Source of the DNA: a virus
Lineage: Duplodnaviria; Heunggongvirae; Uroviricota; Caudoviricetes
Length of the DNA stretch: 48,575 nt
IMG/VR virus record: IMGVR_UViG_2582581022_000007
Location: 1-48,575 of that record
Strand: one strand, 5' to 3'
The position numbers and the translations under genes were made by a program. The notes below the pieces were generated by a model. That model saw only the letters and a list, made by a program, of their open reading frames with translations, ran no database searches and was not told where the DNA came from. Below are positions 2,711 through 47,385 of this stretch, one piece after another. Each line of letters starts with the position of its first letter. Position 1 is the stretch's first letter.

Positions 2711-3340
2711 ATGCCCGCAGAACCTAAAGCACCAAAACGCAAATCAACGCAGTATAAGCCACTGACAGCGATGCAGGAGGCTTACGCGCAGGAATACACC
2801 AAATGCCCTGAGAATCAGACTCAGGCAGCGATTAACGCAGGATTCTCACCTAATACGGCAGCGGTAAAAGCCAGCGTCATGATGCGTGATGAGCGTATCC
2901 AGAAACGGATCGCCGAACTGATGGAAGAGCGCAACAAGCGTCTGCGTGTCAGTGCTGATTACGTGCTGCTCCGCCTGGTGGAAATCGACCAGATGGATGT
3001 GCTGGACATCCTGAATGAAGATGGCTCAATGAAGCCGATCAGCAGCTGGCCAAAGGTATGGCGTACTTCTCTCAGTGCTCTTGATATTGCAACGATAAAA
3101 ACCACGCAGGCATCACTGCAAAAAGATAATGGTGAAGCGGATCTGTCAGTTGAGGATGTAGAGCATATTCTCAAAAAAATAAAATGGCCGGACAAGGTGA
3201 AGAACCTTGAGCTTATCGGTAAGCACGTCGACGTCAATGCGTTCAAAGAGCGCCTGGAGGTTTCCGGTACCGTCACGATTGCCGACCGCATGGCGAAGGC
3301 CCGTCGTCGCGTGAAAGAACAGGCTGGTGGTGAAGAATGA
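2711..3340 (+). CDS. terminase small subunit
   Basis: Immediately upstream of and overlapping terL; N-terminal region (AMQEAYAQEY...QTQAAINAGFSPNTAAVKASVMMRDERIQKRI) resembles terminase small subunit HTH region; start chosen at ATG 2711 because the ORF-track start at 2636 would span the terminator hairpin. Confidence 0.7.
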   Translation: MPAEPKAPKRKSTQYKPLTAMQEAYAQEYTKCPENQTQAAINAGFSPNTAAVKASVMMRDERIQKRIAELMEERNKRLRVSADYVLLRLVEIDQMDVLDILNEDGSMKPISSWPKVWRTSLSALDIATIKTTQASLQKDNGEADLSVEDVEHILKKIKWPDKVKNLELIGKHVDVNAFKERLEVSGTVTIADRMAKARRRVKEQAGGEE

Positions 3341-4818
3341 CAGCTGCAGCCATGTCGCCGGAAGATCAGCTCGTCGAGGATATCGCATCGTTCACGTATG
3401 ACCCGCTGGGCTATTCGCTGTATGCGTTTCCGTGGGGCGAAGAGGGAACAGAGCTGGCGCATGCCACCGGTCCGCGAAAATGGCAGGCTGATGCATTCCG
3501 CGAGATACGGGATCACCTTCAGAATCCTGCTACCCGTCACCAGCCACTGATGCTGGCCCGCGCATCCGGTCACGGTATCGGAAAATCCGCTTTCATTTCG
3601 ATGCTGATCAACTGGGGCATGTCCACCTGCGAGGACTGCAAGGTGGTGGTGACCGCCAACACAGACAACCAGCTGCGCACCAAAACATGGCCTGAAATCA
3701 TCAAATGGTCGAACCTGGCTATCACGAAAGAATGGTTCACCTGCACCGCCACGGCGATGTACAGCAACGATCCCGGTCACGACAAACGCTGGCGCGCTGA
3801 CGCAATCCCATGGTCTGAGCACAACACAGAGGCGTTCGCCGGTCTGCACAACGAGCGTAAGCGCATCATCGTCGTATTCGACGAGGCGTCCAACATCGCC
3901 GATCTGGTGTGGGAGGTGGCCGAGGGTGCGCTGACGGACGAAGACACCGAAATCATCTGGGTGGCGTTCGGTAACCCGACGCGTAACACCGGGCGTTTCC
4001 GTGAATGCTTCCGAAAATACAAACACCGCTGGAAGTGCGCGCAGATAGACAGCCGTACTGTCGAAGGAACAAACAAGCAGCAGTTGCAGAAATGGGTGGA
4101 CGACTACGGCGAGGATAGCGACTTTGTGAAGGTCCGTGTGCGCGGGATCTTCCCTGATGCGTCTGAAAACCAGTTTATTCCATCCGGCCTGACGCAACCA
4201 GCTGTTGGCAGGGTTATCACTCCGGCACAGGTCCAGCACGCTGCTGTAGTTCTTGGCGTCGACCCGTCTCACCAGGGTAAAGACCCCGCAGTTATCTACC
4301 TGAGGCAGGGGCTGCACTGCAAAAAACTCGGGGAGTGGCAGCGTACCACTGACGATGTGCTGTTTGCGAAAGTGATCGCCGACTTTGAGGATCAGTACCA
4401 GGCTGATGCTGTGTTTATCGATTACGGCTATGGCACAGGTCTTAAATCTGTTGGCGATAACTGGGGGCGTAACTGGACGCTGATAATGTTCGGCAGCGGT
4501 ACGGCAGATCCTGAAATGGGCAATAAGCGCGGCGAGATGTACAAATCAGCCCGTGATGCGCTGAAGCTTGGTGCGCAACTTGATAGCCAGGATTTAGCCG
4601 ACGAGCTGAGCGCTCCTGAATACAAGGTCAGGCTCAAGGACAGCCGGAAGATTTTGCAGGACAAGGAAGAGGTGAAAGAATTGCTTGGCCGGTCACCTAA
4701 CAACGCCGACGCCTATGTGCTGACTTATGCTGCTCCGGTTACTAAAAAACAGTTCAATTATGGGCAGCAGCAAAGCCAGCAGGGTAAGGCTCTCACAGAG
4801 TACGATCCCTATGCATGA
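3337..4818 (+). CDS. terminase large subunit
   Basis: 493 aa; ATPase region (ARASGHGIGKSAF.. / IIVVFDEAS) followed by nuclease-like C-terminal half; position between terS and portal. Confidence 0.85.
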   Translation: MTAAAMSPEDQLVEDIASFTYDPLGYSLYAFPWGEEGTELAHATGPRKWQADAFREIRDHLQNPATRHQPLMLARASGHGIGKSAFISMLINWGMSTCEDCKVVVTANTDNQLRTKTWPEIIKWSNLAITKEWFTCTATAMYSNDPGHDKRWRADAIPWSEHNTEAFAGLHNERKRIIVVFDEASNIADLVWEVAEGALTDEDTEIIWVAFGNPTRNTGRFRECFRKYKHRWKCAQIDSRTVEGTNKQQLQKWVDDYGEDSDFVKVRVRGIFPDASENQFIPSGLTQPAVGRVITPAQVQHAAVVLGVDPSHQGKDPAVIYLRQGLHCKKLGEWQRTTDDVLFAKVIADFEDQYQADAVFIDYGYGTGLKSVGDNWGRNWTLIMFGSGTADPEMGNKRGEMYKSARDALKLGAQLDSQDLADELSAPEYKVRLKDSRKILQDKEEVKELLGRSPNNADAYVLTYAAPVTKKQFNYGQQQSQQGKALTEYDPYA

Positions 4819-5476: not shown

Positions 5477-5553
5477 TGGTGCGGCATGCAGGATTCGAAC
5501 CTGCGACCAACCGCTTAGAAGGCGGTTGCTCTATCCAACTGAGCTAATGCCAC
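5477..5553 (-). tRNA. tRNA-Arg (anticodon UCU)
   Basis: Reverse complement folds as cloverleaf: acceptor GTGGCAT/ATGCCGC, D-arm GCTC-AGTTGGAT-AGAGC, anticodon stem ACCGC/GCGGT with loop CTTCTAA, T-arm GCAGG-TTCGAAT-CCTGC, 3' ACCA. Confidence 0.85.
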
Positions 5554-6333: not shown

Positions 6334-8004
6334 ATGGCGGAAACCGAAAAAGAGCGTCTGCTGAAGCAGCTCGCACAGCTGAAGAATGAGCGCACATCGT
6401 TCGAGTCGCACTGGCGTGACCTGAGCGACTTCATCAATCCGCGCGGCTCTCGCTTTCTGACGTCTGATGTAAACCGTGATGATCGTCGAAACACCAAGAT
6501 TGTTGATCCTACTGGCTCAATGGCTCAGCGCATTTTGTCCAGCGGCATGATGTCAGGCATCACCAGCCCGGCACGTCCATGGTTCAAACTGGCAACGCCA
6601 GACCCTGACATGATGGATTATGGTCCGGTTAAAGTCTGGCTGGAAGTCGTGCAGCGCCGCATGAACGAAGTGTTCAACAAGTCAAACCTGTATCAGTCAT
6701 TGCCTGTCATGTACGCCAGCCTTGGCACTTTCGGCACCGCCGCAATGGCTGTGCTCGAAGATGACCAGGACGTGATCCGCACAATGCCTTTCCCGATTGG
6801 CAGCTACTACCTGGCTAACAGCCCGCGCGGCAGCGTCGACACATCCTTCCGCCAGTTCTCCATGACTGTTCGTCAGCTTGTGCAGGAATTCGGTCTGGAT
6901 AACGTCAGCTCATCGGTGCAGGGGATGTGGCAAAACGGCACGTATGAAACGTGGATCGAGGTTAACCACTGCATTACTCCAAACGTTAACCGTGATACCG
7001 GGAAGATGGACAGCAAGAACAAGCCGTTCCGCTCTGTGTACTTCGAGAGTGGCGGCGATTCCGACAAGCTGCTGCGTGAGTCCGGCTTCGATGAATTCCC
7101 GATCCTGGCGCCGCGCTGGGAAGTTAACGGCGAAGACGTTTACGCATCTTCCTGCCCTGGCATGCTGGCACTCGGTCAGGTGAAAGCCCTTCAGGTTGAG
7201 CAGAAGCGTAAAGCTCAGCTGATCGATAAGGCTACTAACCCGCCGATGGTCGCACCTACCTCGCTAAAAACACAGCGTGTTTCCCTGCTGCCTGGTGATG
7301 TGACGTACCTCGACGTGTTGAACGGTCAGGACGGTTTCAAACCTGCATACCTGGTAAACCCGAATACTGCAGATCTGCTGGCTGATATTCAGGATACCCG
7401 CCAGACCATCAACAGCGCCTACTTCGTCGACCTCTTCATGATGCTGCAAAACATCAACACCCGCTCTATGCCGGTGGAAGCAGTGATCGAGATGAAGGAA
7501 GAGAAACTTCTGATGCTTGGCCCGGTGCTGGAGCGCCTGAACGACGAAGCACTTAATCCGCTTATTGACCGCGTTTTCTCCATCATGGCGCGCAAGAACA
7601 TGCTTCCTCCACCGCCGGACGTTATGCAGGGTATGCCGCTGCGTATCGAATACATCTCCGTTATGGCGCAGGCTCAGAAATCTATCGGACTCACCAGCCT
7701 TTCGCAGACCGTTGGCTTCATTGGCCAACTCGCACAGCTCAAACCTGAAGCGCTCGACAAGCTCGACGTTGATCAGGCTATCGACGCGTTCTCCGAAATG
7801 TCCGGCGTATCGCCAACCGTCATCATTCCGCAGGAGCAGGTTCAGGGCATTCGTGAAGAGCGCGCCAAACAGGCACAAGCCGCACAGGCAATGGCAATGG
7901 GGCAGGCCGTAGCGCAGGGAGCCAAGACTCTCAGCGAGACGCAAACCACTGACCCGAGCGCATTAACCGCTATCGCTAATGCAGCAGGAGCACCGCAGCA
8001 ATGA
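6334..8004 (+). CDS. portal (head-to-tail connector) protein, T7-like
   Basis: 556 aa directly after terminase; Q/A-rich C-terminal tail (AKQAQAAQAMAMGQAVAQGAK) like podovirus connector proteins. Confidence 0.75.
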   Translation: MAETEKERLLKQLAQLKNERTSFESHWRDLSDFINPRGSRFLTSDVNRDDRRNTKIVDPTGSMAQRILSSGMMSGITSPARPWFKLATPDPDMMDYGPVKVWLEVVQRRMNEVFNKSNLYQSLPVMYASLGTFGTAAMAVLEDDQDVIRTMPFPIGSYYLANSPRGSVDTSFRQFSMTVRQLVQEFGLDNVSSSVQGMWQNGTYETWIEVNHCITPNVNRDTGKMDSKNKPFRSVYFESGGDSDKLLRESGFDEFPILAPRWEVNGEDVYASSCPGMLALGQVKALQVEQKRKAQLIDKATNPPMVAPTSLKTQRVSLLPGDVTYLDVLNGQDGFKPAYLVNPNTADLLADIQDTRQTINSAYFVDLFMMLQNINTRSMPVEAVIEMKEEKLLMLGPVLERLNDEALNPLIDRVFSIMARKNMLPPPPDVMQGMPLRIEYISVMAQAQKSIGLTSLSQTVGFIGQLAQLKPEALDKLDVDQAIDAFSEMSGVSPTVIIPQEQVQGIREERAKQAQAAQAMAMGQAVAQGAKTLSETQTTDPSALTAIANAAGAPQQ

Positions 8005-27801: not shown

Positions 27802-28206
27802 ATGTCAGCCCAGCTAACCAGTGAGTCTTTAAATCAGTGGCTTAGTATGGGTTCTCTGGCTGCAGTGATCGCAGGAGTTCCACCAGAGGTGGCGCTTGGT
27901 GCTTTATCAGGTGCGGTAATATTTATTACCTCAGCCGTTGAGTATCCAATACGCCGTCGGGTTCTCCTGTCGATGCTCAGCTTCCTCTGCGGGCTTCTAT
28001 TCTACAAACCAACTGCATCAATCCTTATCGGCGTAGCCAGCCTGATCCCAACTATCACGCAGGACTCTTTCGAGAAAGGGATCGTCTTCTCTGCTGGCGC
28101 GTTCGTGTCGGCAATCGTCGCAGTACGTATTGGTATCTGGCTCTATCACCGTTCCGACAATCCACGCGATTTAATCCCGGGGAGAAAAGACGATGACAAC
28201 TCATGA
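27802..28206 (+). CDS. holin (putative), multi-pass membrane protein
   Basis: ~134 aa with several hydrophobic segments and charged C-terminus, first gene of lysis cassette. Confidence 0.5.
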   Translation: MSAQLTSESLNQWLSMGSLAAVIAGVPPEVALGALSGAVIFITSAVEYPIRRRVLLSMLSFLCGLLFYKPTASILIGVASLIPTITQDSFEKGIVFSAGAFVSAIVAVRIGIWLYHRSDNPRDLIPGRKDDDNS

Positions 28207-28498
28207 GCTGCTTTTACTGATTGCCAATGCGGTTATCTGTTCAGCTATAGCAATCCGCGTCGGTACATTCAGGCGTAATGGATCGCAACACCGCCGGTGG
28301 GGTGGGTGGATAGCCTACTTCCTTATCGTGGCATCAGCCAGCATCCCCGTCCGGGCTGCATATGCAATCTGGTATCACACACCAATGTCCGCTGATTTAT
28401 CAGAGGTCATCATCAATGCTGTCATGCTTGCCGCCGTTCTGAAGACGCGCGGTAACGTCGTGCAGATATTCAAAATATCGAGGTCTCAACATGAGTGA
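28193..28498 (+). CDS. second small membrane protein of lysis cassette (holin/antiholin-like)
   Basis: 101 aa, hydrophobic segments, GGAGAAAAGACG-ATG RBS, overlaps neighbours. Confidence 0.45.
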   Translation: MTTHELLLLIANAVICSAIAIRVGTFRRNGSQHRRWGGWIAYFLIVASASIPVRAAYAIWYHTPMSADLSEVIINAVMLAAVLKTRGNVVQIFKISRSQHE

Positions 28499-28970
28499 AC
28501 TTGCATGGATTTCTGAAGGAAGAAAATATATAGGGCAACTGGAAATCAAAGGCCCTCGTCATAATCCTCTAATTCTCCAGTTCTGGAAGGATATTAAACG
28601 AGGTGGTATCAAAGATGATGAAACGCCATGGTGTGCTGCATACGTCGGATCAATGCTCGAGCGTGTCGGAATCAAATCAACCCGTTTCGAGTCTGCAAAA
28701 TCTTACCTCAACTGGGGCGTCGAAATTAGCGAACCAGCTTATGGGTGTGTAGTGGTATTCAATCGTGACGGTGGCGGACATGTCGGGTTTGTTGTCGGAC
28801 AGCAACAGAACGGTGACCTGATGGTGCTGGGCGGTAATCAGTCAGATGCCATCAATATTCGTGCATTTTCACGCTCCCGTGTCACCGGTTACCGCTGGCC
28901 TGTTAATGTTGCCAAGGACAACAGGAAGTTACCTTTAATGACCGGCTCATTATCGGTGAGTGAATCATGA
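28491..28970 (+). CDS. endolysin (putative CHAP/NlpC-P60-like peptidoglycan hydrolase)
   Basis: Cys...His motifs (ETPWCAAYV ... GGHVGFVV) typical of CHAP-type hydrolases; between holin-like genes and spanins. Confidence 0.55.
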   Translation: MSELAWISEGRKYIGQLEIKGPRHNPLILQFWKDIKRGGIKDDETPWCAAYVGSMLERVGIKSTRFESAKSYLNWGVEISEPAYGCVVVFNRDGGGHVGFVVGQQQNGDLMVLGGNQSDAINIRAFSRSRVTGYRWPVNVAKDNRKLPLMTGSLSVSES

Positions 28971-29449
28971 TCAGAGCATTCATGAAAGCGTACTGGAAAC
29001 AGTTGCTTATCGTGGCGATGCTTGCTGCTCTGGTGATCGTCGGCGTTGTTGCCTGGAATGTTCATGGCAGCCGACAGTATGACGCCGGGTATGCGCAGGC
29101 AAAGACAGACCGTAAAACCGAAGATGATAAAGCTCGTCAGCACGACGAACAGGAGAAAGCAATCAATGAACGTAAAGCGCAGCAGAGGATCGACCAGGCG
29201 CGCAATGATGCTCTTGATGCTGCCGCTCGCGCTGGCAGGTTGCAGCAACAGCTCGTTGCCATCCGTGAGCAGCTCAGGCAGTATAACGCCATTGTCGGCG
29301 CTGGGCCGTCAGCCGCAGACACCGGTGTTTTGCTTGCCGACTTGCTCAGCAAATCTCTCGAGCGAAACCGACAACTGGCAGAGTACGCTGATCGGGCAGC
29401 CGAAGCAGGAAGAGTCTGTGAAAAGCAGTACGATTCGCTGACCAGGTGA
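28967..29449 (+). CDS. i-spanin (Rz-like)
   Basis: N-terminal transmembrane segment (LLIVAMLAALVIVGVVAW) then coiled-coil; contains embedded o-spanin in +1 frame. Confidence 0.7.
   Translation: MIRAFMKAYWKQLLIVAMLAALVIVGVVAWNVHGSRQYDAGYAQAKTDRKTEDDKARQHDEQEKAINERKAQQRIDQARNDALDAAARAGRLQQQLVAIREQLRQYNAIVGAGPSAADTGVLLADLLSKSLERNRQLAEYADRAAEAGRVCEKQYDSLTR
29205..29441 (+). CDS. o-spanin (Rz1-like lipoprotein) embedded within Rz gene
   Basis: MMLLMLPLALAGCSNSS lipobox, Pro-rich mature part, fully inside Rz in a different frame. Confidence 0.65.
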   Translation: MMLLMLPLALAGCSNSSLPSVSSSGSITPLSALGRQPQTPVFCLPTCSANLSSETDNWQSTLIGQPKQEESVKSSTIR

Positions 29450-29622
29450 CATGGCATTTTTCATGGTACTGATTTCCGGCGACGGTATATAAAACGGTAT
29501 TGGAAATTTTGTTTCTTTAAAAGTTGTTGTCAGTCAATTACTTATGTTGTCCGTAAATAATTGAGTGGGAATGATTTAACGTCTGGCAACAGCCTGCACG
29601 TAAAAGCAGTAAAGTACCTCTA

Positions 29623-29654
29623 AGCCCGCGTAACTGCGGGCTTTTTTGTTTTTG
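29623..29654 (+). terminator. rho-independent terminator after lysis cassette
   Basis: AGCCCGC-gtaact-GCGGGCT + TTTTTTGTTTTTG. Confidence 0.75.
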
Positions 29655-29880: not shown

Positions 29881-31071
29881 ATGTTGACTGACACCAGGCT
29901 GCGTCACCTTAAGCCGAAGGAGAAACTCTATAAAGTTAATGACCGTGATGGTCTGTATGTTGCGGTCACTCCGGCTGGAACTATTTCATTTCGTTATAAC
30001 TATTCAATAAACGGAAGACAGGAGACCGTTACTTTTGGCCGCTATGGTGTTGGAGGGATCACGCTTGCAGAAGCGCGTGAACGGCTCAATGAAGCTAAAA
30101 AAATGGTTGCCAGTGGAAGATCGCCAGCGAGGGAAAAAGCTAGAGATAAAGCTCGTATCAAAGATGCGGAGACTTTTGGTGCATGGGCTGAGAAATGGTT
30201 ACGCGGTTATCAAATGGCTGAATCGACGCGTGATATGCGGCGTTCGGTATATCAAAGGGAGTTGAAGTCAAAATTTGCGCAGCAGAAATTGACCGAGATT
30301 ACACATGAAGACTTACGCGCATTAACCGATAACATTGTCGAGAGAGGGGCACCGGCGACAGCTGTGCACGCCAGAGAGATTGTATTGCAAGTCTATCGCT
30401 GGGCTATTGAGCGCGGTCAGAAGGTTGAGAATCCCGCTGATCTGGTACGGCCTGCAAGCATAGCGAAATTTGAGCCTCGTGACAGGGCATTGACGCCAGT
30501 TGAAATTGGTCTGATGTATCGGTACATGGAACGGGTAGGAACGACGCCATCAATCAGAGCAGCGGTTAAACTTTTGCTGTTAACGATGGTACGTAAAAGT
30601 GAGCTTACTAACGCAACCTGGAACGAGATCAATTTTAGTGAGGCATTATGGACGATACCAAAGGAGAGGATGAAACGACGTAATCCACATTTGGTTTTTC
30701 TTTCCAGACAGGCAATGGATATTATGATTGCTCTCAAAACCTTTGCCGGTAGCTCTGATTTTATCCTTCCTTCGCGGTACGATTCCGATGCGCCAATGAG
30801 TAGCGCTACTTTAAACCGGGTTTTGACACTGACGTATCGTCTGGCTCAGAAAGAAGGGGACTTGTTACCTAAGTTTGGTCCCCATGACTTACGGCGTACT
30901 GCCAGCACCTTGCTACATGAGGCCGGGTACAATACTGACTGGATTGAGAAGTGCCTTGCCCATGAACAAAAGGGGGTACGAGCTGTTTATAACAAGGCTG
31001 AATATCGTGAGCAGAGGGCCGAGATGCTACAAGATTGGGCGAATATGATTGATGAATGGACTAGTAAGTAG
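29881..31071 (+). CDS. int: tyrosine recombinase/integrase, P4-type
   Basis: N-terminal arm-binding-like region (RLRHLKPKEKLYKVNDRDGLYVAV); C-terminal catalytic signature HDLRRTASTLLHEAGY...CLAHEQKGVRAVYNKAEY. Confidence 0.9.
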   Translation: MLTDTRLRHLKPKEKLYKVNDRDGLYVAVTPAGTISFRYNYSINGRQETVTFGRYGVGGITLAEARERLNEAKKMVASGRSPAREKARDKARIKDAETFGAWAEKWLRGYQMAESTRDMRRSVYQRELKSKFAQQKLTEITHEDLRALTDNIVERGAPATAVHAREIVLQVYRWAIERGQKVENPADLVRPASIAKFEPRDRALTPVEIGLMYRYMERVGTTPSIRAAVKLLLLTMVRKSELTNATWNEINFSEALWTIPKERMKRRNPHLVFLSRQAMDIMIALKTFAGSSDFILPSRYDSDAPMSSATLNRVLTLTYRLAQKEGDLLPKFGPHDLRRTASTLLHEAGYNTDWIEKCLAHEQKGVRAVYNKAEYREQRAEMLQDWANMIDEWTSK

Positions 31072-33686: not shown

Positions 33687-34544
33687 ATGTCATTGAACAT
33701 AATGGAAGCATTTGAAGCTAAGCCACAACCAATTGATTACGTCTTGCCTAATTTGGCTATTGGTACTATCGGAGCGATTGTTTCTCCGGGAGGCGCTGGA
33801 AAGTCAATGCTGGCATTACAATTGGCTGTGCAGATTACTTGTGGTGTAGATCTTTTAAACTTTGGTGAATATCCGACTGGGTTGGTGGCATATTTACCTG
33901 TGGAGGACTCTGAAACCATCGTTCACCATCGTTTATATGCGTTGGGAAAATATCTAACAGCACGTCAGCAGCAGATTGTAGCTGATAAGCTACTGGTCGA
34001 ACCTTTGGTAGGGAAGTGTCCAAATATTTTCTTGCCGGATTGGAGCAACTTGATCAATGAAGTTTCAAAAGGTAGACGTTTAATAATTTTGGATACTCTT
34101 CGCCGTTTCCACCAGGAGGATGAGAATAATAGCGCAGCAATGTCCAAAGTCATTGGAAAGCTAGAAGGTATTGCTGCTGATACTGGATGTTCGATTATAT
34201 TTCTACACCATTCAAACAAAGGCGCTGCCACGATGGGGGTTGGTGATATACAGCAGGCAAGCAGGGGTAGTAGCGTCCTGGTTGATAATATACGGTGGCA
34301 ATCTTATCTGGCGGGCATGACCGCCTTGGAAGCGAAGACGTATGGTATTTCTGATGATGTTCGAGGTCAATTTGTTAGATTTGGAATAAATAAAGTAAAT
34401 TATGGAGAACGTGCGCCAGATCGTTGGTTACAGAGACATGAGGGGGGAGTATTAAAAATAACGGCGCTCAGCTCGAAGAATAATAAAAAGCTTACTAAAG
34501 AAAGAACATCTACCTGGAGTGGCGCTGACAATGACAACTGGTAA
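33687..34544 (+). CDS. RecA-fold P-loop ATPase (AAA_25/RepA-like)
   Basis: Walker A IVSPGGAGKSMLALQLA, Walker B-like RLIILDTL, IIFLHHSNK; typical partner of alpA in integrative islands. Confidence 0.6.
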   Translation: MSLNIMEAFEAKPQPIDYVLPNLAIGTIGAIVSPGGAGKSMLALQLAVQITCGVDLLNFGEYPTGLVAYLPVEDSETIVHHRLYALGKYLTARQQQIVADKLLVEPLVGKCPNIFLPDWSNLINEVSKGRRLIILDTLRRFHQEDENNSAAMSKVIGKLEGIAADTGCSIIFLHHSNKGAATMGVGDIQQASRGSSVLVDNIRWQSYLAGMTALEAKTYGISDDVRGQFVRFGINKVNYGERAPDRWLQRHEGGVLKITALSSKNNKKLTKERTSTWSGADNDNW

Positions 34545-37211: not shown

Positions 37212-37385
37212 ATGAAAGATAATCTTTTGATTGTATTTATTCTGATCAGTTTATTGGCCATATGTTCTTGCGATAAAAATGATAAAGATTGTTTATCGAC
37301 GCCAGATAATAAATTTGATGAAAATAAATACGATAAATGTGCTCTACGGAGTAATAATAAACCAAGCCCTAAACGAGAATGGTAA
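37212..37385 (+). CDS. trbK: small lipoprotein, TrbK-like (entry exclusion) by position
   Basis: MKDNLLIVFILISLLAICSC signal/lipobox-like N-terminus, 57 aa, between trbJ-like and trbL-like genes. Confidence 0.45.
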   Translation: MKDNLLIVFILISLLAICSCDKNDKDCLSTPDNKFDENKYDKCALRSNNKPSPKREW

Positions 37386-38779
37386 TCATGAAAATAGCAA
37401 GTAAGCTCACCTTTCTAGGTATCATAATTTTCTTTTCTATAAATGCCTATGCTGGTCAATTAGATAGTAGCGGGCTACTTGATTCTTTATTAGATAAGTT
37501 TCAACAAGTAGCCAGTACATGGACAACAGTAATTGCTGACTATGCAAATTGGCTCTTCTGGGGGCTGGTATTAATAAGTATGGTTTGGACATTTGGTATG
37601 ATGGCAATGCAAGGAGAAGGGTTGACAGGCGTACTTGCTGAAATAGTTCGCTTTTTTGCCGTCATTGGTTTTTTTTATTATCTTTTAATCAACGGCCCAT
37701 CCATATCGCAATCCATAATTAATTCAATGAGGCAACTTGCAGCAAACGCTTTAGGAATAAGTACTGGTATTTCGCCCTCAAGCATAGTTGATATGGCGTT
37801 TGCGATATTAACAAAGGTCAGTTCAGCCGCATCAATTTGGTCGCCAATGATATCCACCATTATGATAACAGTAGCGATAATCGTTTTGGTAGTGATGTCC
37901 CTTATAGCGATAAATATGCTAATCATGTTGGTTTCTGCATGGGTGTTATGTTATGCAGGAGTTATATTGCTTGGATTTAGTGGTTCGAAATGGACCTCTG
38001 ATATAGCAATTAATTACTTACGAACTGTTTTATCGATTGGCATTCAATTATTCACGATGACATTAATTATTGGGATTGGACAATCATTTATAGATCAATA
38101 TTTTTCTCTTATTAAAGATGATGTTCCTGATCTTAATAGTCTTATCGTTTTGCTTCTGGCGTCAATTATCCTGTTAGTATTAACGAATAAGCTACCACTG
38201 TTGTTATCAGGTGTTGTAGGAGGAGCTTCTTTACAAGGGATTGGTGGATTTGGGGCGGGTATGATTACTGGCGCTGCCGCTACTGCCATCAGCGGTGCTG
38301 GAGCAATTGCAATGGGGGCATCAGCTCAAGTCAGCGGCGGAGCCTCTGCATTAAAGGCAGCGTTCGAGTCTGCGCAAGCTGCCATGGCCGAGGAATCTGG
38401 TTCAGGTGGTGGAGGCGGTTCCGGTGGAGGATTTGGCGTCGGGGAAGATACCGGTTCTGTAGATACTTCTGGAGGCCAACCCTCAGGCAGTTCCGGTGGT
38501 TCGTCAGCATGGAGCAGTTCAGTTAGCTCCAGCGGAGGAAGTCAGGGGTTTGCTTCATTCTCACGAGCTGGCCGCATGGCAAGCCATATGGGAAGCATCA
38601 TGGCCAACGGAGCTGCTGAGTACCAGAAAATGAAGCGAAGTAGCAATTCTTCTCGTGTCCAACAAACTATTGGAGGGGAGTTGGCGACTCAGATACGTAA
38701 GCAGACAGCTACTCATCGGGATAACCGCGAACATGATGATTTTGCCGATGATAGCTTATCGGGTAATAATAAATCTTGA
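37379..38779 (+). CDS. trbL: TrbL/VirB6-like polytopic membrane protein
   Basis: 466 aa, many transmembrane segments, Gly/Ser-rich C-terminal tail (SGSGGGGGSGGGFGVGEDTGS). Confidence 0.65.
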   Translation: MVIMKIASKLTFLGIIIFFSINAYAGQLDSSGLLDSLLDKFQQVASTWTTVIADYANWLFWGLVLISMVWTFGMMAMQGEGLTGVLAEIVRFFAVIGFFYYLLINGPSISQSIINSMRQLAANALGISTGISPSSIVDMAFAILTKVSSAASIWSPMISTIMITVAIIVLVVMSLIAINMLIMLVSAWVLCYAGVILLGFSGSKWTSDIAINYLRTVLSIGIQLFTMTLIIGIGQSFIDQYFSLIKDDVPDLNSLIVLLLASIILLVLTNKLPLLLSGVVGGASLQGIGGFGAGMITGAAATAISGAGAIAMGASAQVSGGASALKAAFESAQAAMAEESGSGGGGGSGGGFGVGEDTGSVDTSGGQPSGSSGGSSAWSSSVSSSGGSQGFASFSRAGRMASHMGSIMANGAAEYQKMKRSSNSSRVQQTIGGELATQIRKQTATHRDNREHDDFADDSLSGNNKS

Positions 38780-39514: not shown

Positions 39515-40747
39515 GTGAGCCAAGAAGATGATGATAAGTATCCAGCTAGCGCCGTATCCTCATGGAGCGGCTTCGTTTATCAAGGGAAAATTGCATTATA
39601 TCACTCCCTCAAGATTATTCACGATGGCGATCTAGACTTTGAGCTTCAGCTAGACAGTAGTGACGACTTCGCTATTTATAAAAATGGAAAACTACACACA
39701 GCCCATCAAGTCAAAGCGAAGATAAGTAAATATCGAAGTGGTTACACCAAGGCGCTGGAACAGTCTACTTTAATCGAACACGACAAAATCCAAGGGACAA
39801 CGCGTTACTTCCATGTATCTGTTCCTCTAAATAATACGGACGATCATAGAGGCGCTAGCGGAGAAATAGTAAAATTCTATCGCTATGGGGATAATTATTA
39901 TTGTGGTTTGGGTGAAATTGAAGGGCTTACCAAAGAACTAATAAAAAAAATATGTAATAAGCAGCACATCATTGTCAGTGATAACCTTATAAATTTTAAC
40001 TATTGTTTACTTTCTGAAAAAATCAGCACCAAGGCAATATACAATCATAAATTAAATCAGGTTGGCGGAATTTCAGAAAACAGAGCAGCATATGAGGGTC
40101 GTATCAAGGCCAGAAATATTCTAGAAGACCTGCTAACCGAAAACCCCTATCAGAATAGGGACTACTATGCAGTTGCATTAAAGGCCAGGCTTCAAACTCA
40201 TCTGGAAGAGAGGTTGGATCAGGCGCTTCCAACAATGAGTGACACTACTTACGAGAGAGCTAGATGTCTGTGTGAGCACATTCGCGAAACTCATATCAAT
40301 GAATTGAAAGCCCTATGCCAGATGATGAAGCCCTCCGAGCGATTTCAAGACGTTCAGACGAACGACATCAGGCGATACACCAAGCTTATCCAGGCTATTT
40401 CGGTGGAGCCTATATTCAACCACCTCCCACACTACCTTGACAGCGAAAATCGATTTTACGTACCTACCGCTCTTGATGTAGATGAAAGCGAAGAGTGTGA
40501 GTTTGACATGACCCGTGAAATGAAAAACAACGGGGATCTGCTGAGACTACTTTTTGAGTATAACCATCTAATCGCCAGCAAAGCAGAAGCCTCATTCACC
40601 TTTAATACAAAATTTACAAACTCAGATGACTTCGACAACAAGCAGACCACTGAAAAGCTCGAAAGCAACATCACCAAGTCGCTATGCATTAGCGTGATAA
40701 CAAAAGACGATGCGGAGGAACGACTGAATGATAAAGCAACTCATTGA
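39515..40747 (+). CDS. candidate defence effector, LmuA-like (N-terminal PD-(D/E)xK-like nuclease motifs)
   Basis: GTG start with AAAGGAG RBS; GFVYQGKIALYHS...DLDFELQLDSSDDF...HQVKAK suggests D...D...(E/Q)xK nuclease; first gene of coupled operon. Confidence 0.45.
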   Translation: MSQEDDDKYPASAVSSWSGFVYQGKIALYHSLKIIHDGDLDFELQLDSSDDFAIYKNGKLHTAHQVKAKISKYRSGYTKALEQSTLIEHDKIQGTTRYFHVSVPLNNTDDHRGASGEIVKFYRYGDNYYCGLGEIEGLTKELIKKICNKQHIIVSDNLINFNYCLLSEKISTKAIYNHKLNQVGGISENRAAYEGRIKARNILEDLLTENPYQNRDYYAVALKARLQTHLEERLDQALPTMSDTTYERARCLCEHIRETHINELKALCQMMKPSERFQDVQTNDIRRYTKLIQAISVEPIFNHLPHYLDSENRFYVPTALDVDESEECEFDMTREMKNNGDLLRLLFEYNHLIASKAEASFTFNTKFTNSDDFDNKQTTEKLESNITKSLCISVITKDDAEERLNDKATH

Positions 40748-41393
40748 TGAAGCACTTGTTGCACATGGCTTTGTTAGTAAACGCGACTTGGACAACACAA
40801 GCTTTTATATTCGCGAGTCTGGATCTGCTATCAGGTTTGCAGTTCTATATAATCTTGATGACCTTCCTGACCCAGCCGAATTGAATAATAGAATCAATCA
40901 TCTTGCTCCTAGTGAATTTCTCAGAAACCCAAGCTTTAAGAAAAACTGCGACTTGATTTGTATTTATCGTCTTGATGTTCTGGCCAATTTCAAAGATCAC
41001 GAAGAAGAGATTTTCGCAATTGAAGAAGATCCGCACTTCTATAAAAAGTATGTTCTCTATTACAGTATCGCGGAAGAAAGTGCACTCACTAATTTCACCT
41101 ACGACAAACTGGTATCTGTTATTGCTGACAAAAAAGAATTTCTTGAATACAAAGAAAATCCTCTTAACGCCACACAATACAGCTTTGCGGCGAAGACCTT
41201 TATCAAGCTTCCTTTTTTAGAGTTACCTAACCATCAAGAAAATCTTGTGTCCTTGAGGTTACAGGCAGCAGAGGCCGTTGCACAAGCCAGCCTGAACGAT
41301 ACGTATTTGACTATCCAGAAAGTCACAGATAAAAACGCCGACGAAATTATCAAGGAAATGATTAAAAATGAACTGGCAAATATCCAAGATTGA
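40728..41393 (+). CDS. small middle-gene protein of the operon (LmuC-like by position)
   Basis: 221 aa; overlaps upstream gene by 20 nt and downstream gene by 26 nt; GGAGGA RBS. Confidence 0.45.
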   Translation: MIKQLIDEALVAHGFVSKRDLDNTSFYIRESGSAIRFAVLYNLDDLPDPAELNNRINHLAPSEFLRNPSFKKNCDLICIYRLDVLANFKDHEEEIFAIEEDPHFYKKYVLYYSIAEESALTNFTYDKLVSVIADKKEFLEYKENPLNATQYSFAAKTFIKLPFLELPNHQENLVSLRLQAAEAVAQASLNDTYLTIQKVTDKNADEIIKEMIKNELANIQD

Positions 41394-43701
41394 AGTCTCT
41401 AGCTTCAAAGCTTTCAAGCATATCTATTTGGATCTTGACAAGTCGTCTTTGCTAACTCTGGACGGCCCTAACGGTTATGGTAAAACAAGCATATTCGACG
41501 CAATCGAACTATTGCTTACCGGCCAGATCAGTCGAATACAAAATCTATTCAAGACATTACTAACCAAGAACAAGAGAGACTACGCGGACAATCTTTTCTG
41601 GAATAGTCGCTCAGGAGAGAACGATCTCTGCATTAAGATTGAATTTACTAATGATGGTCGCAAACTTGTCTTAGCTAGACATTGCCAAGCTGCAATATTC
41701 AAAAAACCAGTAAACAATCGTGCAGACAAATACGAAAATTTCAAGCTTTATGAGCTGCCAGAATTCGAATCGTCTGAATTCACTAAGATCAATCTGCGCG
41801 ATAATAATTTCCTTGATGAAATTTTCGGAAAGAATTTCAGGGAAAACTTCTCCTTTCTTAACTATTTGGAGCAAGGGCAAAACCGGCTGTTACACACTCG
41901 GGTAGACGAACGGAAGGATAAACTAGGAAACCTATTTAATATCAGTGATATCGAAGCCGAGATTGAAAACTGCAACACTGTATACAGCAAACTCACAAGG
42001 TACATCAATAATCCTGAACGCACGGCAAAAGCTGCATCTCTTATTGAAGAAATAGCCATCCTAAAGGACACATTGCAGGCAGTGGCTGGGAACATTAAGT
42101 ACAAAAAACTCTCGACGACTGATGTCCAACCGGGGTGGGACAAGGAGATAATGTTCTCTACGTATTCGTCAGTGGACCATGCAGCCTACCAGGAATCAGT
42201 TCGTAAGATTATTGCCCTTCTACCACTCAAAGCCACGATAAAAACTAGGGTCCATAACGAGAGAATTGATGCCTACATCGGTCGTAATGAGGAATCTCTG
42301 AGAAGTCTGGCGCAGTTTGGTAAAGACCTGGGCAAGCTTGATGTGCTTGACGCTATCAAGAAAGGGATTGATGAGTTAGAACGTTCAGCAAGTATCATTA
42401 AACGTGGTGCTACGGTGATCAAGCTCGAAGAAGCTCGTTCATTACAAGGTTGGGCGGGTGGGCGTCTTGAGTGGTTTGAGTTACAAATTAATTCTCGAAA
42501 CAGCTTACAAGTAAAAAGTAGCGCCAACACGAACGTTGTAGCCGAATTGGAACGTCTAAAAAGGCAGTTACTTAGGGAACATAAAAAGTCTTATCCCGAC
42601 GAGCAGTTGTGCCCTCTCTGTGGTGCTGACTGGGAAGATCACAAATTAATGGCAGATGCTATTGAAGCAAGAACTAAGCAGATCTCTGAATCATTAGGAC
42701 AGGACGGTAAGGACTTAGTTAACCTTATCGCTGCTATGGACGCAGAGCTGAAACTTATCGACTCCTTTATACAAGACAGCCTGAAACTCCTTACGCCTAC
42801 ATTTGAATCGAACCTTCATGTAGGGCTGACCAGAATTAAGCTTCGGCTCCCGGCAATAACCCAAGTACTGGAAAAGCTGCAAAGCGAAAATATTCAATTT
42901 ACTGATTCATTCACGGAAATTGATGACTTAGTAGATGAGCGACTTGAAAAGCTCAAAGAGATTCTAAGAAATAAAAAACAGGTTGAGGCTGATGCCTTAA
43001 CGCTGCCGGAGGACTGGCGAGAAACCATAAATAGCTCTTTTAAAGATCTGCAGGACTTCTACATAGTCACGGCTGAAGACCTAAAGGGTAAAGAGCATTA
43101 CATATCGATTAAAGCTAACGAGGCTCAAAGTTCTAGGCTCCAAACTTGTATTAAAGATCTTAATCTTATCGAAAAAGAAACCATGGCAGCTCAAAAAGCA
43201 CAAGGTAAAATCGAAAAGCTCCGCAACACTTTGAAAAAGACCGAGCAGAACTATACTGACCAAACAATTTCGGCTATTGAGTTCATATTCCACATTTATA
43301 GTGGTCGGCTGATCCAAAACTACCAGCGTGGCCTGGGCCTGTTTATTGAGAGCCGCGAAGGTACGCAACTGAGGTTCCTGACTGCTGAGAAGTCTGAACA
43401 CGACGCAGTCATGTCCATGAGTTCAGGTCAGGTGTCTGCGCTCAGCCTTGCTTTCTTCCTCGCGCTCAACAAAGTCTATGCACGGGTTCCTCTCATATTG
43501 ATTGACGACCCGTCGCAATCACTGGATGAAGTAAACGTTGCTTCGTTGACCGATCTACTCCGTTGCGAACTCAAACATTGCCAGTTGGTTGTCTCATCGC
43601 ACGAGGACGATATCTCGGCCTATATGCGCTACCGGTTCGACAGAGCCGGTTTGACAACAAGTTCGCTCAACATGCAGCTTTTGGCGAAAGAAGCTTCGTA
43701 A
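41368..43701 (+). CDS. SMC/Rad50-like ABC ATPase with mid-protein CxxC (zinc-hook-like); LmuB-like
   Basis: Walker A GPNGYGKTS (res ~33-41), CPLCG near res ~415 in long charged helix-rich middle, C-terminal SGQVSALSLAF signature, LILIDDP Walker B, SSHED. Confidence 0.75.
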   Translation: MNWQISKIEVSSFKAFKHIYLDLDKSSLLTLDGPNGYGKTSIFDAIELLLTGQISRIQNLFKTLLTKNKRDYADNLFWNSRSGENDLCIKIEFTNDGRKLVLARHCQAAIFKKPVNNRADKYENFKLYELPEFESSEFTKINLRDNNFLDEIFGKNFRENFSFLNYLEQGQNRLLHTRVDERKDKLGNLFNISDIEAEIENCNTVYSKLTRYINNPERTAKAASLIEEIAILKDTLQAVAGNIKYKKLSTTDVQPGWDKEIMFSTYSSVDHAAYQESVRKIIALLPLKATIKTRVHNERIDAYIGRNEESLRSLAQFGKDLGKLDVLDAIKKGIDELERSASIIKRGATVIKLEEARSLQGWAGGRLEWFELQINSRNSLQVKSSANTNVVAELERLKRQLLREHKKSYPDEQLCPLCGADWEDHKLMADAIEARTKQISESLGQDGKDLVNLIAAMDAELKLIDSFIQDSLKLLTPTFESNLHVGLTRIKLRLPAITQVLEKLQSENIQFTDSFTEIDDLVDERLEKLKEILRNKKQVEADALTLPEDWRETINSSFKDLQDFYIVTAEDLKGKEHYISIKANEAQSSRLQTCIKDLNLIEKETMAAQKAQGKIEKLRNTLKKTEQNYTDQTISAIEFIFHIYSGRLIQNYQRGLGLFIESREGTQLRFLTAEKSEHDAVMSMSSGQVSALSLAFFLALNKVYARVPLILIDDPSQSLDEVNVASLTDLLRCELKHCQLVVSSHEDDISAYMRYRFDRAGLTTSSLNMQLLAKEAS

Positions 43702-45064: not shown

Positions 45065-45916
45065 CTATGGGTAAATTAAATTGTGCTTAGTATATAAGAA
45101 CTGGACTACACCTTGGGAGTTTAAAATTCCATGAATAAAGATTGAGAACCAGTTGTTTGGTGTGCTGTACGACTGATCATATCTATTTAATGCATCATTC
45201 AAATATCTCGAAAAGTCAGCAATGGTTGGAGTATTGGCTAATGGTAACGTTTGAATTTTTAAGCTTGGGTTTTGTGTCGTTGTATCCCATTCACCTTCTA
45301 GCCAATTAATAATTCCTGATGGGAGAACAACTTTCTCCGTGTGGTATTTTATGCTGTCTATTTCTAAGTGCTGTGGTAAAACATAAGCTATTTCAATTTT
45401 AGCTTTTGGAAATTGAGGGTCTTGAGTAATGTTACACGACAAAAGCCTCTGATTAAGAAAAACGTCATAATAAGGATGTAGTATCCTTTTATTTCCATCC
45501 GTTAAATTCGTTTTTCGTTTGCTGTTGCAATCACAAGCTGGAACTAAATTTTTTGAATACACAGAAAAGCAAGGGTAGTCATCTTTAGGAAACAGGTGAT
45601 CAAGGGTTCCTGTTTTTAATGAACCGCACATTGGGCAAACGTTTGGTGAAGATGCTCTTAAATCATCAATGAACTTTAAGTCAGTTGGTGGTGAAGCGTA
45701 GTGCTTCTTCAATGCTATTGATAAATCATTGGTAATGTTGACGTTCGCAACTGATAGTGCGTTACCATTATTAGCGTCATAGTCTTGGTATCCATTTAAA
45801 ATGATCTGTAACTCATTGTGTAAATGCGGATAACTTGTTCTATGAAGCCTGTCTCTTTGAGACGTTGTCGTTATTTTCTCAATATCATTTACCGCAGGTA
45901 AAGGAAGCTTTTTCAC
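45065..45916 (-). CDS. HNH endonuclease (PtuB-like)
   Basis: CPMCGS...TLDHLFPK...PACDCNSKR HNH/zinc-finger motifs; GTG start 2 nt after upstream ATPase stop with GGAGGA RBS. Confidence 0.75.
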   Translation of the reverse strand: MKKLPLPAVNDIEKITTTSQRDRLHRTSYPHLHNELQIILNGYQDYDANNGNALSVANVNITNDLSIALKKHYASPPTDLKFIDDLRASSPNVCPMCGSLKTGTLDHLFPKDDYPCFSVYSKNLVPACDCNSKRKTNLTDGNKRILHPYYDVFLNQRLLSCNITQDPQFPKAKIEIAYVLPQHLEIDSIKYHTEKVVLPSGIINWLEGEWDTTTQNPSLKIQTLPLANTPTIADFSRYLNDALNRYDQSYSTPNNWFSIFIHGILNSQGVVQFLYTKHNLIYP

Positions 45917-45918
45917 AA

Positions 45919-47385
45919 TTAATCCTCCATCATGCGTTTTAATCGCATTAAGGCTGATAGCGAAATTTCATTGCCTAGCTGTTCTTCTACGTCAGAAAAG
46001 CTCTTGCCTTTCACTCTATCGTAGAGTTTTTCTGAAAGTCTTATTTCAGTATCTTCCTGAAAGATAAACTGTGAAATAGAATCTACAGTTGCTCCAAATG
46101 TCGGTAACCTCGGTTTATCAGTTACGAGCCTGTGATCTGATATTGAGAGAACAGCTACCTGTTCATTTGATACTTCACGGACAAAATACGCCGAATGAGT
46201 TGCTATAAGTGCCTGTGAGCCTGTTTTTTCTAATAGGAAGTCTAGTAGTCCTATAAAATCAACAATCATGTTAGGATGCATGTGCGTTTCAGGTTCATCC
46301 ATCAATACAAACGTACCGTTTTCAATGAACAAGCAACTCAGTAAAGCAACCTTAAAGAAGGTTAACTGCCCGCTACTAAGCGGGTAGAGTCCGTCGCCTC
46401 TTTTTAATTTAGGGTCTAGGTTGTGCTCAATACTAGCCCAACGCATCAAAGAATCTTGCTCTCCGTTTCCTTGTAAAAAACTCCATAGATTGATTGTTCG
46501 TTCATTTTTTAACTGTAAAAAGATATTTCTAGGGTCTAATCCTGCTTGGTAAAGTGAATCCAAAAAAAGGTTTTTTCGAGTATTTTCACCAATCTCATCT
46601 GCACTTCTCGCTAATTGTACGAGGCAATCACCAATATTATGTGTCCCTTTTCGAGTCAGATTTAACCGTCTATAGTAAAGCTTCTGTGTCGCTCTTCTTT
46701 CAGGGGGAAACGTGTTTGAGGTTTCACCAGGTGTCGCTATTGCGATAATACGATTGATTAGAGGTCGTTTACCGTCATCGTCAACCAGTGACAACCCTTT
46801 ATCTTTATATTGCAGTGCCCCTCGGCAAAATGCTTTAAGCGACTCGCTTTTACCAACACCATTTTTACCTATCAACACAAAAATTCGCTTCGGTATGATA
46901 CTTTGGTGGTTGTATTTTAATGACAGTTGATGAAGCTCTTCAAAACCATCTAACTGGAACTTAAGTTCTAACGAGTTGGATATAGCTACATCACTTTTTA
47001 GCTCTTCTCCAATAATAATACTGTTAGCATTGTGATAAGCGAAGAACGGCTCGGAGTTACGCATGAAACCAAGTTTAAATACTTCAGTATCAATGGCTTT
47101 TCTTACCCATTTTTCATCAGTGTCTTTATATTGAGAAAGATCATTTACTGTACGTAAGAATAGTTCGGCTCCTTCGCGGCCAAACCCGTCGTAAAGGTCT
47201 CGGTAGCTTTGCATGTCAGGTAACAAAGTAAAAAATGGAGGAAGGTCCTCTGAATAAACAACCTCTTTATCAGCCTTTTTTAGGTACTCCCATAGCGTTT
47301 CTTTTTTTTCATAAAAGAGAAGCTCTTCCTCTTTGTTTTCTATGTTATCTGGAGCCATAAAGCCAATTAACATTGAGCCTTCCAT
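45919..47385 (-). CDS. ABC-type/AAA_21-like ATPase (PtuA-like) with ~170-aa N-terminal extension
   Basis: Walker A IGKNGVGKS at res ~173-180, signature LSSGQLTFFKVALL, Walker B FVLMDEPETHMHP, H-loop IATHSAYF. Confidence 0.75.
   Translation of the reverse strand: MEGSMLIGFMAPDNIENKEEELLFYEKKETLWEYLKKADKEVVYSEDLPPFFTLLPDMQSYRDLYDGFGREGAELFLRTVNDLSQYKDTDEKWVRKAIDTEVFKLGFMRNSEPFFAYHNANSIIIGEELKSDVAISNSLELKFQLDGFEELHQLSLKYNHQSIIPKRIFVLIGKNGVGKSESLKAFCRGALQYKDKGLSLVDDDGKRPLINRIIAIATPGETSNTFPPERRATQKLYYRRLNLTRKGTHNIGDCLVQLARSADEIGENTRKNLFLDSLYQAGLDPRNIFLQLKNERTINLWSFLQGNGEQDSLMRWASIEHNLDPKLKRGDGLYPLSSGQLTFFKVALLSCLFIENGTFVLMDEPETHMHPNMIVDFIGLLDFLLEKTGSQALIATHSAYFVREVSNEQVAVLSISDHRLVTDKPRLPTFGATVDSISQFIFQEDTEIRLSEKLYDRVKGKSFSDVEEQLGNEISLSALMRLKRMMED

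Follow-up and report, generated by a model that had tools for sequence, protein, structure and literature searches.

Does the open reading frame (ORF) that lies out of frame inside the Rz-like gene of an epsilon15-like prophage encode the lipoprotein partner of the Rz-like protein, or is it a by-product of the sequence that contains it? The question is raised by positions 28967–29449 of a 48,575-nucleotide stretch of Caudoviricetes DNA (IMG/VR virus record IMGVR_UViG_2582581022_000007; the whole stretch is called the window here), for which an initial annotation had proposed an embedded Rz/Rz1 spanin pair. We conclude, with a probability of roughly 93%, that 28967–29449 is a two-component embedded spanin of the 'Bcep176' DUF2514 family to which the pairs of phages epsilon15 and phiV10 belong. 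The feature is already known, because epsilon15 and phiV10 annotate a pair of the same layout and because the family is listed by Kongari et al. (2018; PMC6139136); it is an ordinary, catalogued lysis feature, and the window supplies a new allele of this annotated embedded pair. Positions are those of the window, and features are on its + strand unless otherwise stated.

Results

The Rz-like i-spanin gene, read from the ORF list and the raw sequence, starts with an ATG at 28967 and ends at 29449 (483 nt, 160 amino acids). The initial annotation had placed a lipoprotein ORF entirely within this gene in the +1 frame, and this proved correct: the program-made ORF list gives a wider open frame at 29046–29441 that lies wholly within 28967–29449, and the Rz1-like o-spanin gene itself, at 29166–29441 (276 nt), begins 199 nt after the Rz start, which places it in the +1 frame. 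The o-spanin gene is therefore wholly inside the i-spanin gene and in a different frame, and extends from 0.41 L to 0.98 L, where L is the length of Rz. By its coordinates the pair follows the published span rule, according to which an embedded o-spanin mostly (in about 70% of cases) extends from 0.4–0.5 L to 0.9–1 L (PMC6139136). A Shine-Dalgarno-like AGGAG, read from the sequence at 29151–29155, is located 10 nt 5' of the Rz1 ATG, within the Rz coding sequence.

The embedded product is a precursor of 91 amino acids that begins MNVKRSRGSTRRAMMLLMLPLALAGCSNSS; from ATG 29166 it reads MNVKRSRGSTRRAMMLLMLPLALAGC followed by SNSS. Its n-region is basic, with five basic residues among the first 12, and its h-region is uncharged and hydrophobic and leads into the lipobox LAGC noted in the initial annotation (amino acids 23–26, codons at 29232–29243). 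A PROSITE-style pattern rule for signal peptidase II-type cleavage is satisfied, with MNVKRSRGSTRRAMMLLMLPLALAG followed by CS, so that Cys26 is the predicted acylated N-terminus of a mature lipoprotein of 66 amino acids. The residue at position +2 is Ser, not Asp, and predicts sorting to the outer membrane. The lipoprotein had been described as Pro-rich; there is indeed a mild enrichment in Pro in the mature part (six residues, 9%), but the description is overstated, as Ser dominates the composition (16 residues, 24%). By comparison, the mature lambda Rz1 has 40 residues, of which 10 (25%) are Pro (PMC6139136).

The i-spanin has a single Kyte-Doolittle hydrophobic segment (amino acids 7–35), with a transmembrane helix at about amino acids 10–30. 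This segment is N-terminal and preceded by basic residues, and for this reason the predicted topology of Rz is N-in, C-out. In an AlphaFold2 single-sequence model (mean pLDDT 85) the protein forms two helices, at amino acids 2–110 and 116–159, separated by a GAGPS break at amino acids 111–115. Rz thus combines a single N-terminal transmembrane domain with a largely helical periplasmic domain. It has a single periplasmic cysteine, Cys151, and mature Rz1 has two, Cys56 and Cys60, within a C-L-P-T-C motif encoded by 29331–29345. Kongari et al. (2018; PMC6139136) surveyed 528 two-component spanins, of which 507 have at least one periplasmic cysteine for homotypic disulfide bonds, and the three cysteines of the window pair agree with this general presence; the bonds that they could form are candidate disulfides.

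Both proteins match spanin families over their full length. Rz matches Pfam DUF2514 with an E-value of 1.8e-47 over positions 1–161 of 161 (161.8 bits for a cutoff of 26), that is, end to end and without any difference of substance from the 'Bcep176'/DUF2514 family, and it matches phrog_312, 'Rz-like spanin', at 1.6e-58. Rz1 matches phrog_11621, also 'Rz-like spanin', at 7.5e-40 over positions 1–88 of 88, which establishes homology to known o-spanins. An NCBIfam scan returned nothing for Rz or for either of the holin-family proteins described below. No match at E<=1 was found for either spanin protein in the lambda-type Pfam families, Phage_lysis (PF03245) for Rz and what we take to be PF06085 for Rz1. 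Since these families are unmatched, 'Rz/Rz1' is a functional label here and does not denote sequence homology to the lambda pair.

Phages epsilon15, phiV10, SPN1S, SPC32H/N and SPN9TCW have been placed in the 'Bcep176' i-spanin and o-spanin families (Kongari et al., 2018; PMC6139136), and comparison with these known embedded pairs, which the initial annotation had proposed as a check, bears it out. In epsilon15, the genes p06 (NP_848234.1, 26139–26621) and p07 (YP_850992.1, 26338–26613) have lengths of 483 and 276 nt and are annotated as Rz/Rz1 with the same 199-nt +1 offset as in the window; the same lengths, +1 embedding and offset are found for PhiV10p30 and p30a in phiV10. The window and epsilon15 proteins differ by a handful of substitutions, the Rz proteins being 91% and the Rz1 proteins 93% identical in amino acids, and the DNA of the 2-kb region is 87–93% identical to Salmonella phage epsilon15, to SPN1S and to E. 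coli phage phiV10, except in the endolysin gene. In the window, as in epsilon15 and phiV10, the spanin pair constitutes the last genes ahead of the attachment (att) region.

We analysed the conservation of the embedded frame in 80 loci obtained by an IMG/VR scan (88–100% Rz identity), supplemented with epsilon15, phiV10 and Klebsiella phage vB_KpnP_BUCT711; these 83 loci comprise 63 distinct 483-nt variants. The +1 frame with an L[AV]GC lipobox is intact in all 83 loci. Among the 63 variants the equivalent of ATG 29166 is invariant, AGGAG is kept in 62, the lipobox is LAGC in 60 and LVGC in three, Ser at +2 and CLPTC are each present in 62, and Rz Cys151 and Rz1 Cys56 and Cys60 are conserved in 62 or 63. 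More distant relatives were sought by tblastn of Rz against phage records, which returned 271 records, and six of these, at 36–52% Rz identity and from other genera, were examined (PAS61, RSU-F4K5, Vi II-E1, KE08, ZK22 and eiAU-183). All six contain a +1 embedded lipoprotein ORF with a lipobox, running from about 0.35–0.49 L to 0.90–0.95 L in keeping with the published span rule, and C-x-P-[TN]-C or C-x-E-T-C occurs in each of them; Vi II-E1, eiAU-183 and other distant DUF2514 members have the same embedded lipoprotein with C-x-P-T-C.

Two of these relatives deserve a separate mention. PAS61 (Uetakevirus) and ZK22 (Skatevirus) share an Rz type with '...LRAE...LAE.YTG...' over Rz residues about 88–160 and an Rz1 type with 'C-S-P-[TN]-C-L', in place of the epsilon15 type. 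Their N-terminal halves remain epsilon15-like or E1-like; the distal halves of both proteins come as two alternative 'alleles'. This arrangement suggests recombination inside the spanin gene, in which the distal halves of both partners would have been swapped together.

The variants also bear on where translation of the o-spanin would start. The same protein could be initiated further upstream, at ATG 29124 (105 amino acids, with the lipobox Cys at position 40), which is present in 62 of the 63 variants, or downstream, at ATG 29205 or 29208 (77–78 amino acids, Cys at 12–13). Signal peptides are indeed shorter, with the Cys at 17, when the likeliest starts of the distant relatives are used, and the starts chosen in GenBank differ among annotators, for example for RSU-F4K5 and Vi II-E1. 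However, the +1 open frame of some alleles spans exactly 91 codons, so that the equivalent of 29166 is the first usable start, and the residues encoded 5' of 29166 in the Rz1 frame, from 29124 onwards, are highly variable; these two observations place the start at 29166. In addition, it is 29166 that is both invariant and preceded by the conserved AGGAG, a start at 29205 would leave a 12-residue signal devoid of a basic n-region, and the curators of epsilon15 and phiV10 picked the equivalent of 29166. We consider another start improbable.

Conservation of two overlapping frames can be separated by comparing the third positions of Rz codons along the gene. Among the 63 variants, the entropy of Rz wobble positions is 0.57 before the overlap, 0.11 over Rz1 residues 1–61 and 0.49 over Rz1 residues 62–91. 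Variation is thus about five-fold lower over Rz1 residues 1–61 (Mann-Whitney, p = 1.5e-8 versus the pre-overlap region and 3.6e-5 versus residues 62–91). The comparison with the upstream region is confounded, as that part of Rz is less conserved at the amino acid level too; the cleaner contrast is between the two sub-regions of the overlap, which have similar Rz protein conservation and do not differ at Rz codon positions 1 and 2. In the constrained part, 24 variants are nonsynonymous in Rz and synonymous in Rz1 and 22 are the converse, whereas in the Rz1 tail 28 variants are synonymous in Rz and nonsynonymous in Rz1 and only two are the converse. Both frames are under selection. The wobble entropies and variant counts indicate that Rz1 is conserved at the cost of Rz synonymous sites over its signal peptide and the 36 mature residues that follow it, and that its final 30 residues drift along with the Rz wobble positions. 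Amino acid entropy follows the same division, with 0.61 for Rz1 residues 62–91 (29349–29441) and 0.09 for residues 26–61, the Rz residues that overlap the tail being conserved.

The genes directly upstream of Rz are those expected of a lysis cassette. The first encodes a holin-family membrane protein similar to epsilon15 gp23, with three hydrophobic segments (27802–28206; Pfam Phage_holin_8, 1e-10; phrog_198, holin, 4.2e-40); its mechanically called ORF starts at GTG 27793, and ATG 27802 yields the 405 nt of epsilon15 p03. The second, which overlaps it by 14 nt, encodes a holin of 101 amino acids with hydrophobic segments (28193–28498; Pfam Phage_holin_3_7, 7.8e-30; phrog_217, holin, 3.4e-34). 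The third encodes a putative soluble endolysin of the NlpC/P60-CHAP type (28491–28970, 159 amino acids), which matches NCBIfam TIGR02594 at 3.1e-42, above the cutoff, and Pfam CHAP at 2.6e-8, and in which a hydrophobicity scan detected no hydrophobic, transmembrane or signal-arrest-release (SAR) segment. Its stop codon overlaps the Rz start (ATGA), and the four reading frames of the cassette overlap by 4–14 nt. The initial annotation had assigned the region to a lysis cassette and the upstream genes to holin and endolysin. Family matches sustain both assignments, with the refinement that there are two holin-family genes and that the peptidase is of the TIGR02594/CHAP type and not GH19. This confirms that the prophage lysis cassette is complete, with holin-family proteins, endolysin, i-spanin and o-spanin. 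The endolysin role of 28491–28970 is put forward from family and position and is putative: in existing annotations TIGR02594 proteins figure either as putative endolysins or as peptidoglycan-degrading effectors of type VI secretion systems (T6SS), and a PDB sequence search with this protein found no solved relative at E<=0.01.

Discussion

In this work we asked whether the +1 frame of an Rz-like gene encodes an o-spanin, and several observations weigh against a positive answer. The lipoprotein signal of Rz1 was called from a pattern rule only. The embedded product has no meaningful match in Pfam or NCBIfam (GerPB, at E 0.067, being the only hit), so that, of the family libraries, PHROGs alone recognizes it. 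Its last 30 residues are poorly conserved and so may not be functional. The literature searched contains no experimental work on epsilon15-type spanins, and the proposed spanin function derives from homology and from analogy with lambda, T7, P2 and T4. Finally, alternative-frame ORFs are common in Rz, and openness of a frame carries by itself little weight: a +1 ATG-initiated ORF reaches 91 codons or more in 28% of codon-order shuffles and 6% of synonymous recodings of Rz, and among the 63 natural variants two antisense frames stay open over 91 codons or more in 44 and 51 cases, respectively.

This last point, together with the missing Pfam and NCBIfam matches, is what would be expected if the +1 ORF were a non-coding by-product of a stop-poor coiled-coil sequence rich in Ala, Gln, Arg and Glu, its lipobox being coincidental. 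Nevertheless, +1 ORFs with the features of a lipoprotein signal arise in just 0.3–0.7% of the same shuffled and recoded controls, and the by-product account leaves unexplained the near-invariance of the start codon, of the lipobox with its +2 Ser and of CLPTC, the wobble suppression that is specific to Rz1 residues 1–61, the persistence of the embedded frame at 36–52% Rz identity, and the phrog_11621 match. We therefore regard a by-product as very unlikely. The antisense ORFs themselves, which in the window are located at 28889–29248 (- strand, 119 codons) and 29137–29457 (- strand, 106 codons), are most simply seen as by-products of the stop-poor coiled-coil coding sequence; comparable frames are broken in some of the 63 variants, down to minima of 55 and 82 codons.

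That the DUF2514 protein is a tail protein or an endopeptidase and not a spanin, as labels on some homologues would have it ('phage tail protein' in Vi II-E1, 'tail protein' in seszw and MK54, 'endopeptidase' in PAS61, EC.W1-9 and Sf11), is very unlikely, as no catalytic or tail domain was matched, the protein is built from a transmembrane helix and, behind it, two long helices, its gene always adjoins a holin or endolysin gene and always bears the embedded lipoprotein, and its name in PHROGs and RefSeq is Rz-like spanin. 'Endopeptidase' is a historical label for lambda Rz. Public names for this i-spanin family are indeed diverse, and include 'DUF2514 domain-containing protein', 'tail protein', 'phage tail protein', 'endopeptidase' and 'lysin' (loci L003, L085, L088, L089 and L090 and hits H33–H64 of our set). 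The embedded o-spanin is usually unannotated, including in RefSeq E. coli chromosomes.

With the region read as an embedded spanin pair, the contrast between the two parts of Rz1 lends itself to a more specific, and tentative, interpretation. The 28 tail variants that are silent in Rz and change Rz1, compared with two of the converse, raise the possibility that only the N-proximal 36 residues of mature Rz1, up to C-L-P-T-C, are selected, and that the C-terminal 30 residues result from unconstrained reading on through the codons of the second Rz helix. The contact between i-spanin and o-spanin would then be in the middle of the o-spanin and not at its C-terminal end, and the embedded gene would be longer than needed because Rz tolerates no stop. 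We find this reading worth stating, although the odds are somewhat against it.

We infer how the pair would act by analogy with lambda Rz/Rz1. Late transcription would produce a single cassette mRNA. Rz would insert as a type II inner-membrane protein, its helical periplasmic domain reaching across the periplasm, while Rz1, translated from the internal +1 start, would be exported, lipidated at Cys26 and, having Ser at +2, carried to the outer membrane by the Lol pathway. The two proteins would bind each other across the periplasm and would form homodimers stabilized by disulfides (Cys151 for Rz, Cys56 and Cys60 for Rz1). Upon holin triggering, the TIGR02594-type soluble endolysin would be released and would degrade the murein, and the spanin complexes, no longer caged, would collapse. 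Their collapse would bring about fusion of the inner membrane with the outer one, as the last step of lysis.

The window pair resembles lambda Rz/Rz1 in several respects: the o-spanin gene is inside the i-spanin gene in the +1 frame, the pair is the last of the lysis cassette, the i-spanin is organized as transmembrane domain, helix, linker and helix, the predicted topologies are the same, and both pairs have periplasmic cysteines. It differs from it by the absence of detectable sequence homology, by the longer and Ser-rich mature o-spanin described above, and by the distribution of cysteines, with one in the i-spanin and two in the o-spanin in the window compared with two and one in lambda.

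The cassette differs from those of its closest relatives by its endolysin. A 159-amino-acid TIGR02594/CHAP peptidase occupies the place where epsilon15, phiV10 and SPN1S have a 209-amino-acid GH19 enzyme, and DNA homology to epsilon15 is lost over exactly the endolysin gene (28491–28970), as in a module swap. Among the 83 related loci, this slot holds GH19 in 77, TIGR02594 in five and another type in one (locus L071); the same spanin pair therefore occurs behind unrelated endolysins, which provides a further example of the modularity of lysis cassettes. Phage BUCT711 (Uetakevirus) has the same four-gene order as the window, a TIGR02594 enzyme taking the place of the endolysin ahead of DUF2514, and is 80% identical in nucleotides across 87% of the 2-kb query. 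The BUCT711 Rz exceeds that of the window by 6 residues, and the BUCT711 record leaves the embedded Rz1 unannotated even though the LAGC-bearing ORF is present. The window also lacks the O-antigen conversion genes that epsilon15 and phiV10 have between the tailspike and lysis genes. The identification of the pair matters little beyond correct annotation; it gives exact coordinates for a type of o-spanin gene that is routinely omitted by automatic pipelines.

Prophage boundary and neighbouring element

Judging from gene content and alignments, the window does not represent a free phage genome, and positions 1 to about 29560 correspond to the late arm of an epsilon15-like prophage, with genes for the small and large terminase, portal, GP7 capsid and tailspike proteins and the lysis genes. 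A tRNA-Arg gene (anticodon TCT; 5477–5553, - strand) is located between the large terminase gene (3337–4818) and the portal gene (6334–8004). The right end of the prophage is marked by an 18-bp attachment-site core, ATTGAGTGGGAATGATTT, at 29560–29577, 110 nt past the Rz stop, which corresponds to the last codons of guaA and which a three-way alignment showed to be common to the window, the epsilon15 att region and the end of E. coli M8 guaA. To the left of this core the window matches the epsilon15 att arm, and to the right it is 99.8% identical to the post-guaA sequence of many E. coli chromosomes, which comprises a terminator, a 396-amino-acid integrase gene and a hypothetical gene. The first terminator 3' of the lysis operon, an intrinsic-terminator-like hairpin with a T-run detected by a consensus scan at 29622–29643, thus lies beyond the att core, and its hairpin sequence is identical to that which follows guaA in E. 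coli M8.

The integrase gene at 29881–31071 was considered as part of the prophage that bears Rz and was rejected, as it lies to the right of the core in the post-guaA sequence. Because the DNA to the right of the core is E. coli post-guaA sequence, this integrase is part of another, second element, which is integrated in tandem. In E. coli VE-V11-M (NZ_AP027978.1, 1247214–1249318) an epsilon15-like Rz gene is followed contiguously by a frameshifted integrase gene of the 396-amino-acid type, with 93% identity to the window, and the integrase copy is followed by genes for an EexN-family lipoprotein, a helix–turn–helix (HTH) regulator and RepA; given this arrangement, the Rz-att-integrase junction is also present in other strains, where the cargo behind it differs. 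In the window, the tandem island carries genes for an AAA_25 protein (33687–34544) and a TrbL/VirB6-like protein (37379–38779), a Lamassu/ABC-3C system (39515–43701) composed of LmuA (39515–40747), LmuC (40728–41393) and LmuB (41368–43701), and, on the - strand, the candidate defence system PDC-M01 (45065–47385), composed of PDC-M01B (45065–45916) and PDC-M01A (45919–47385).

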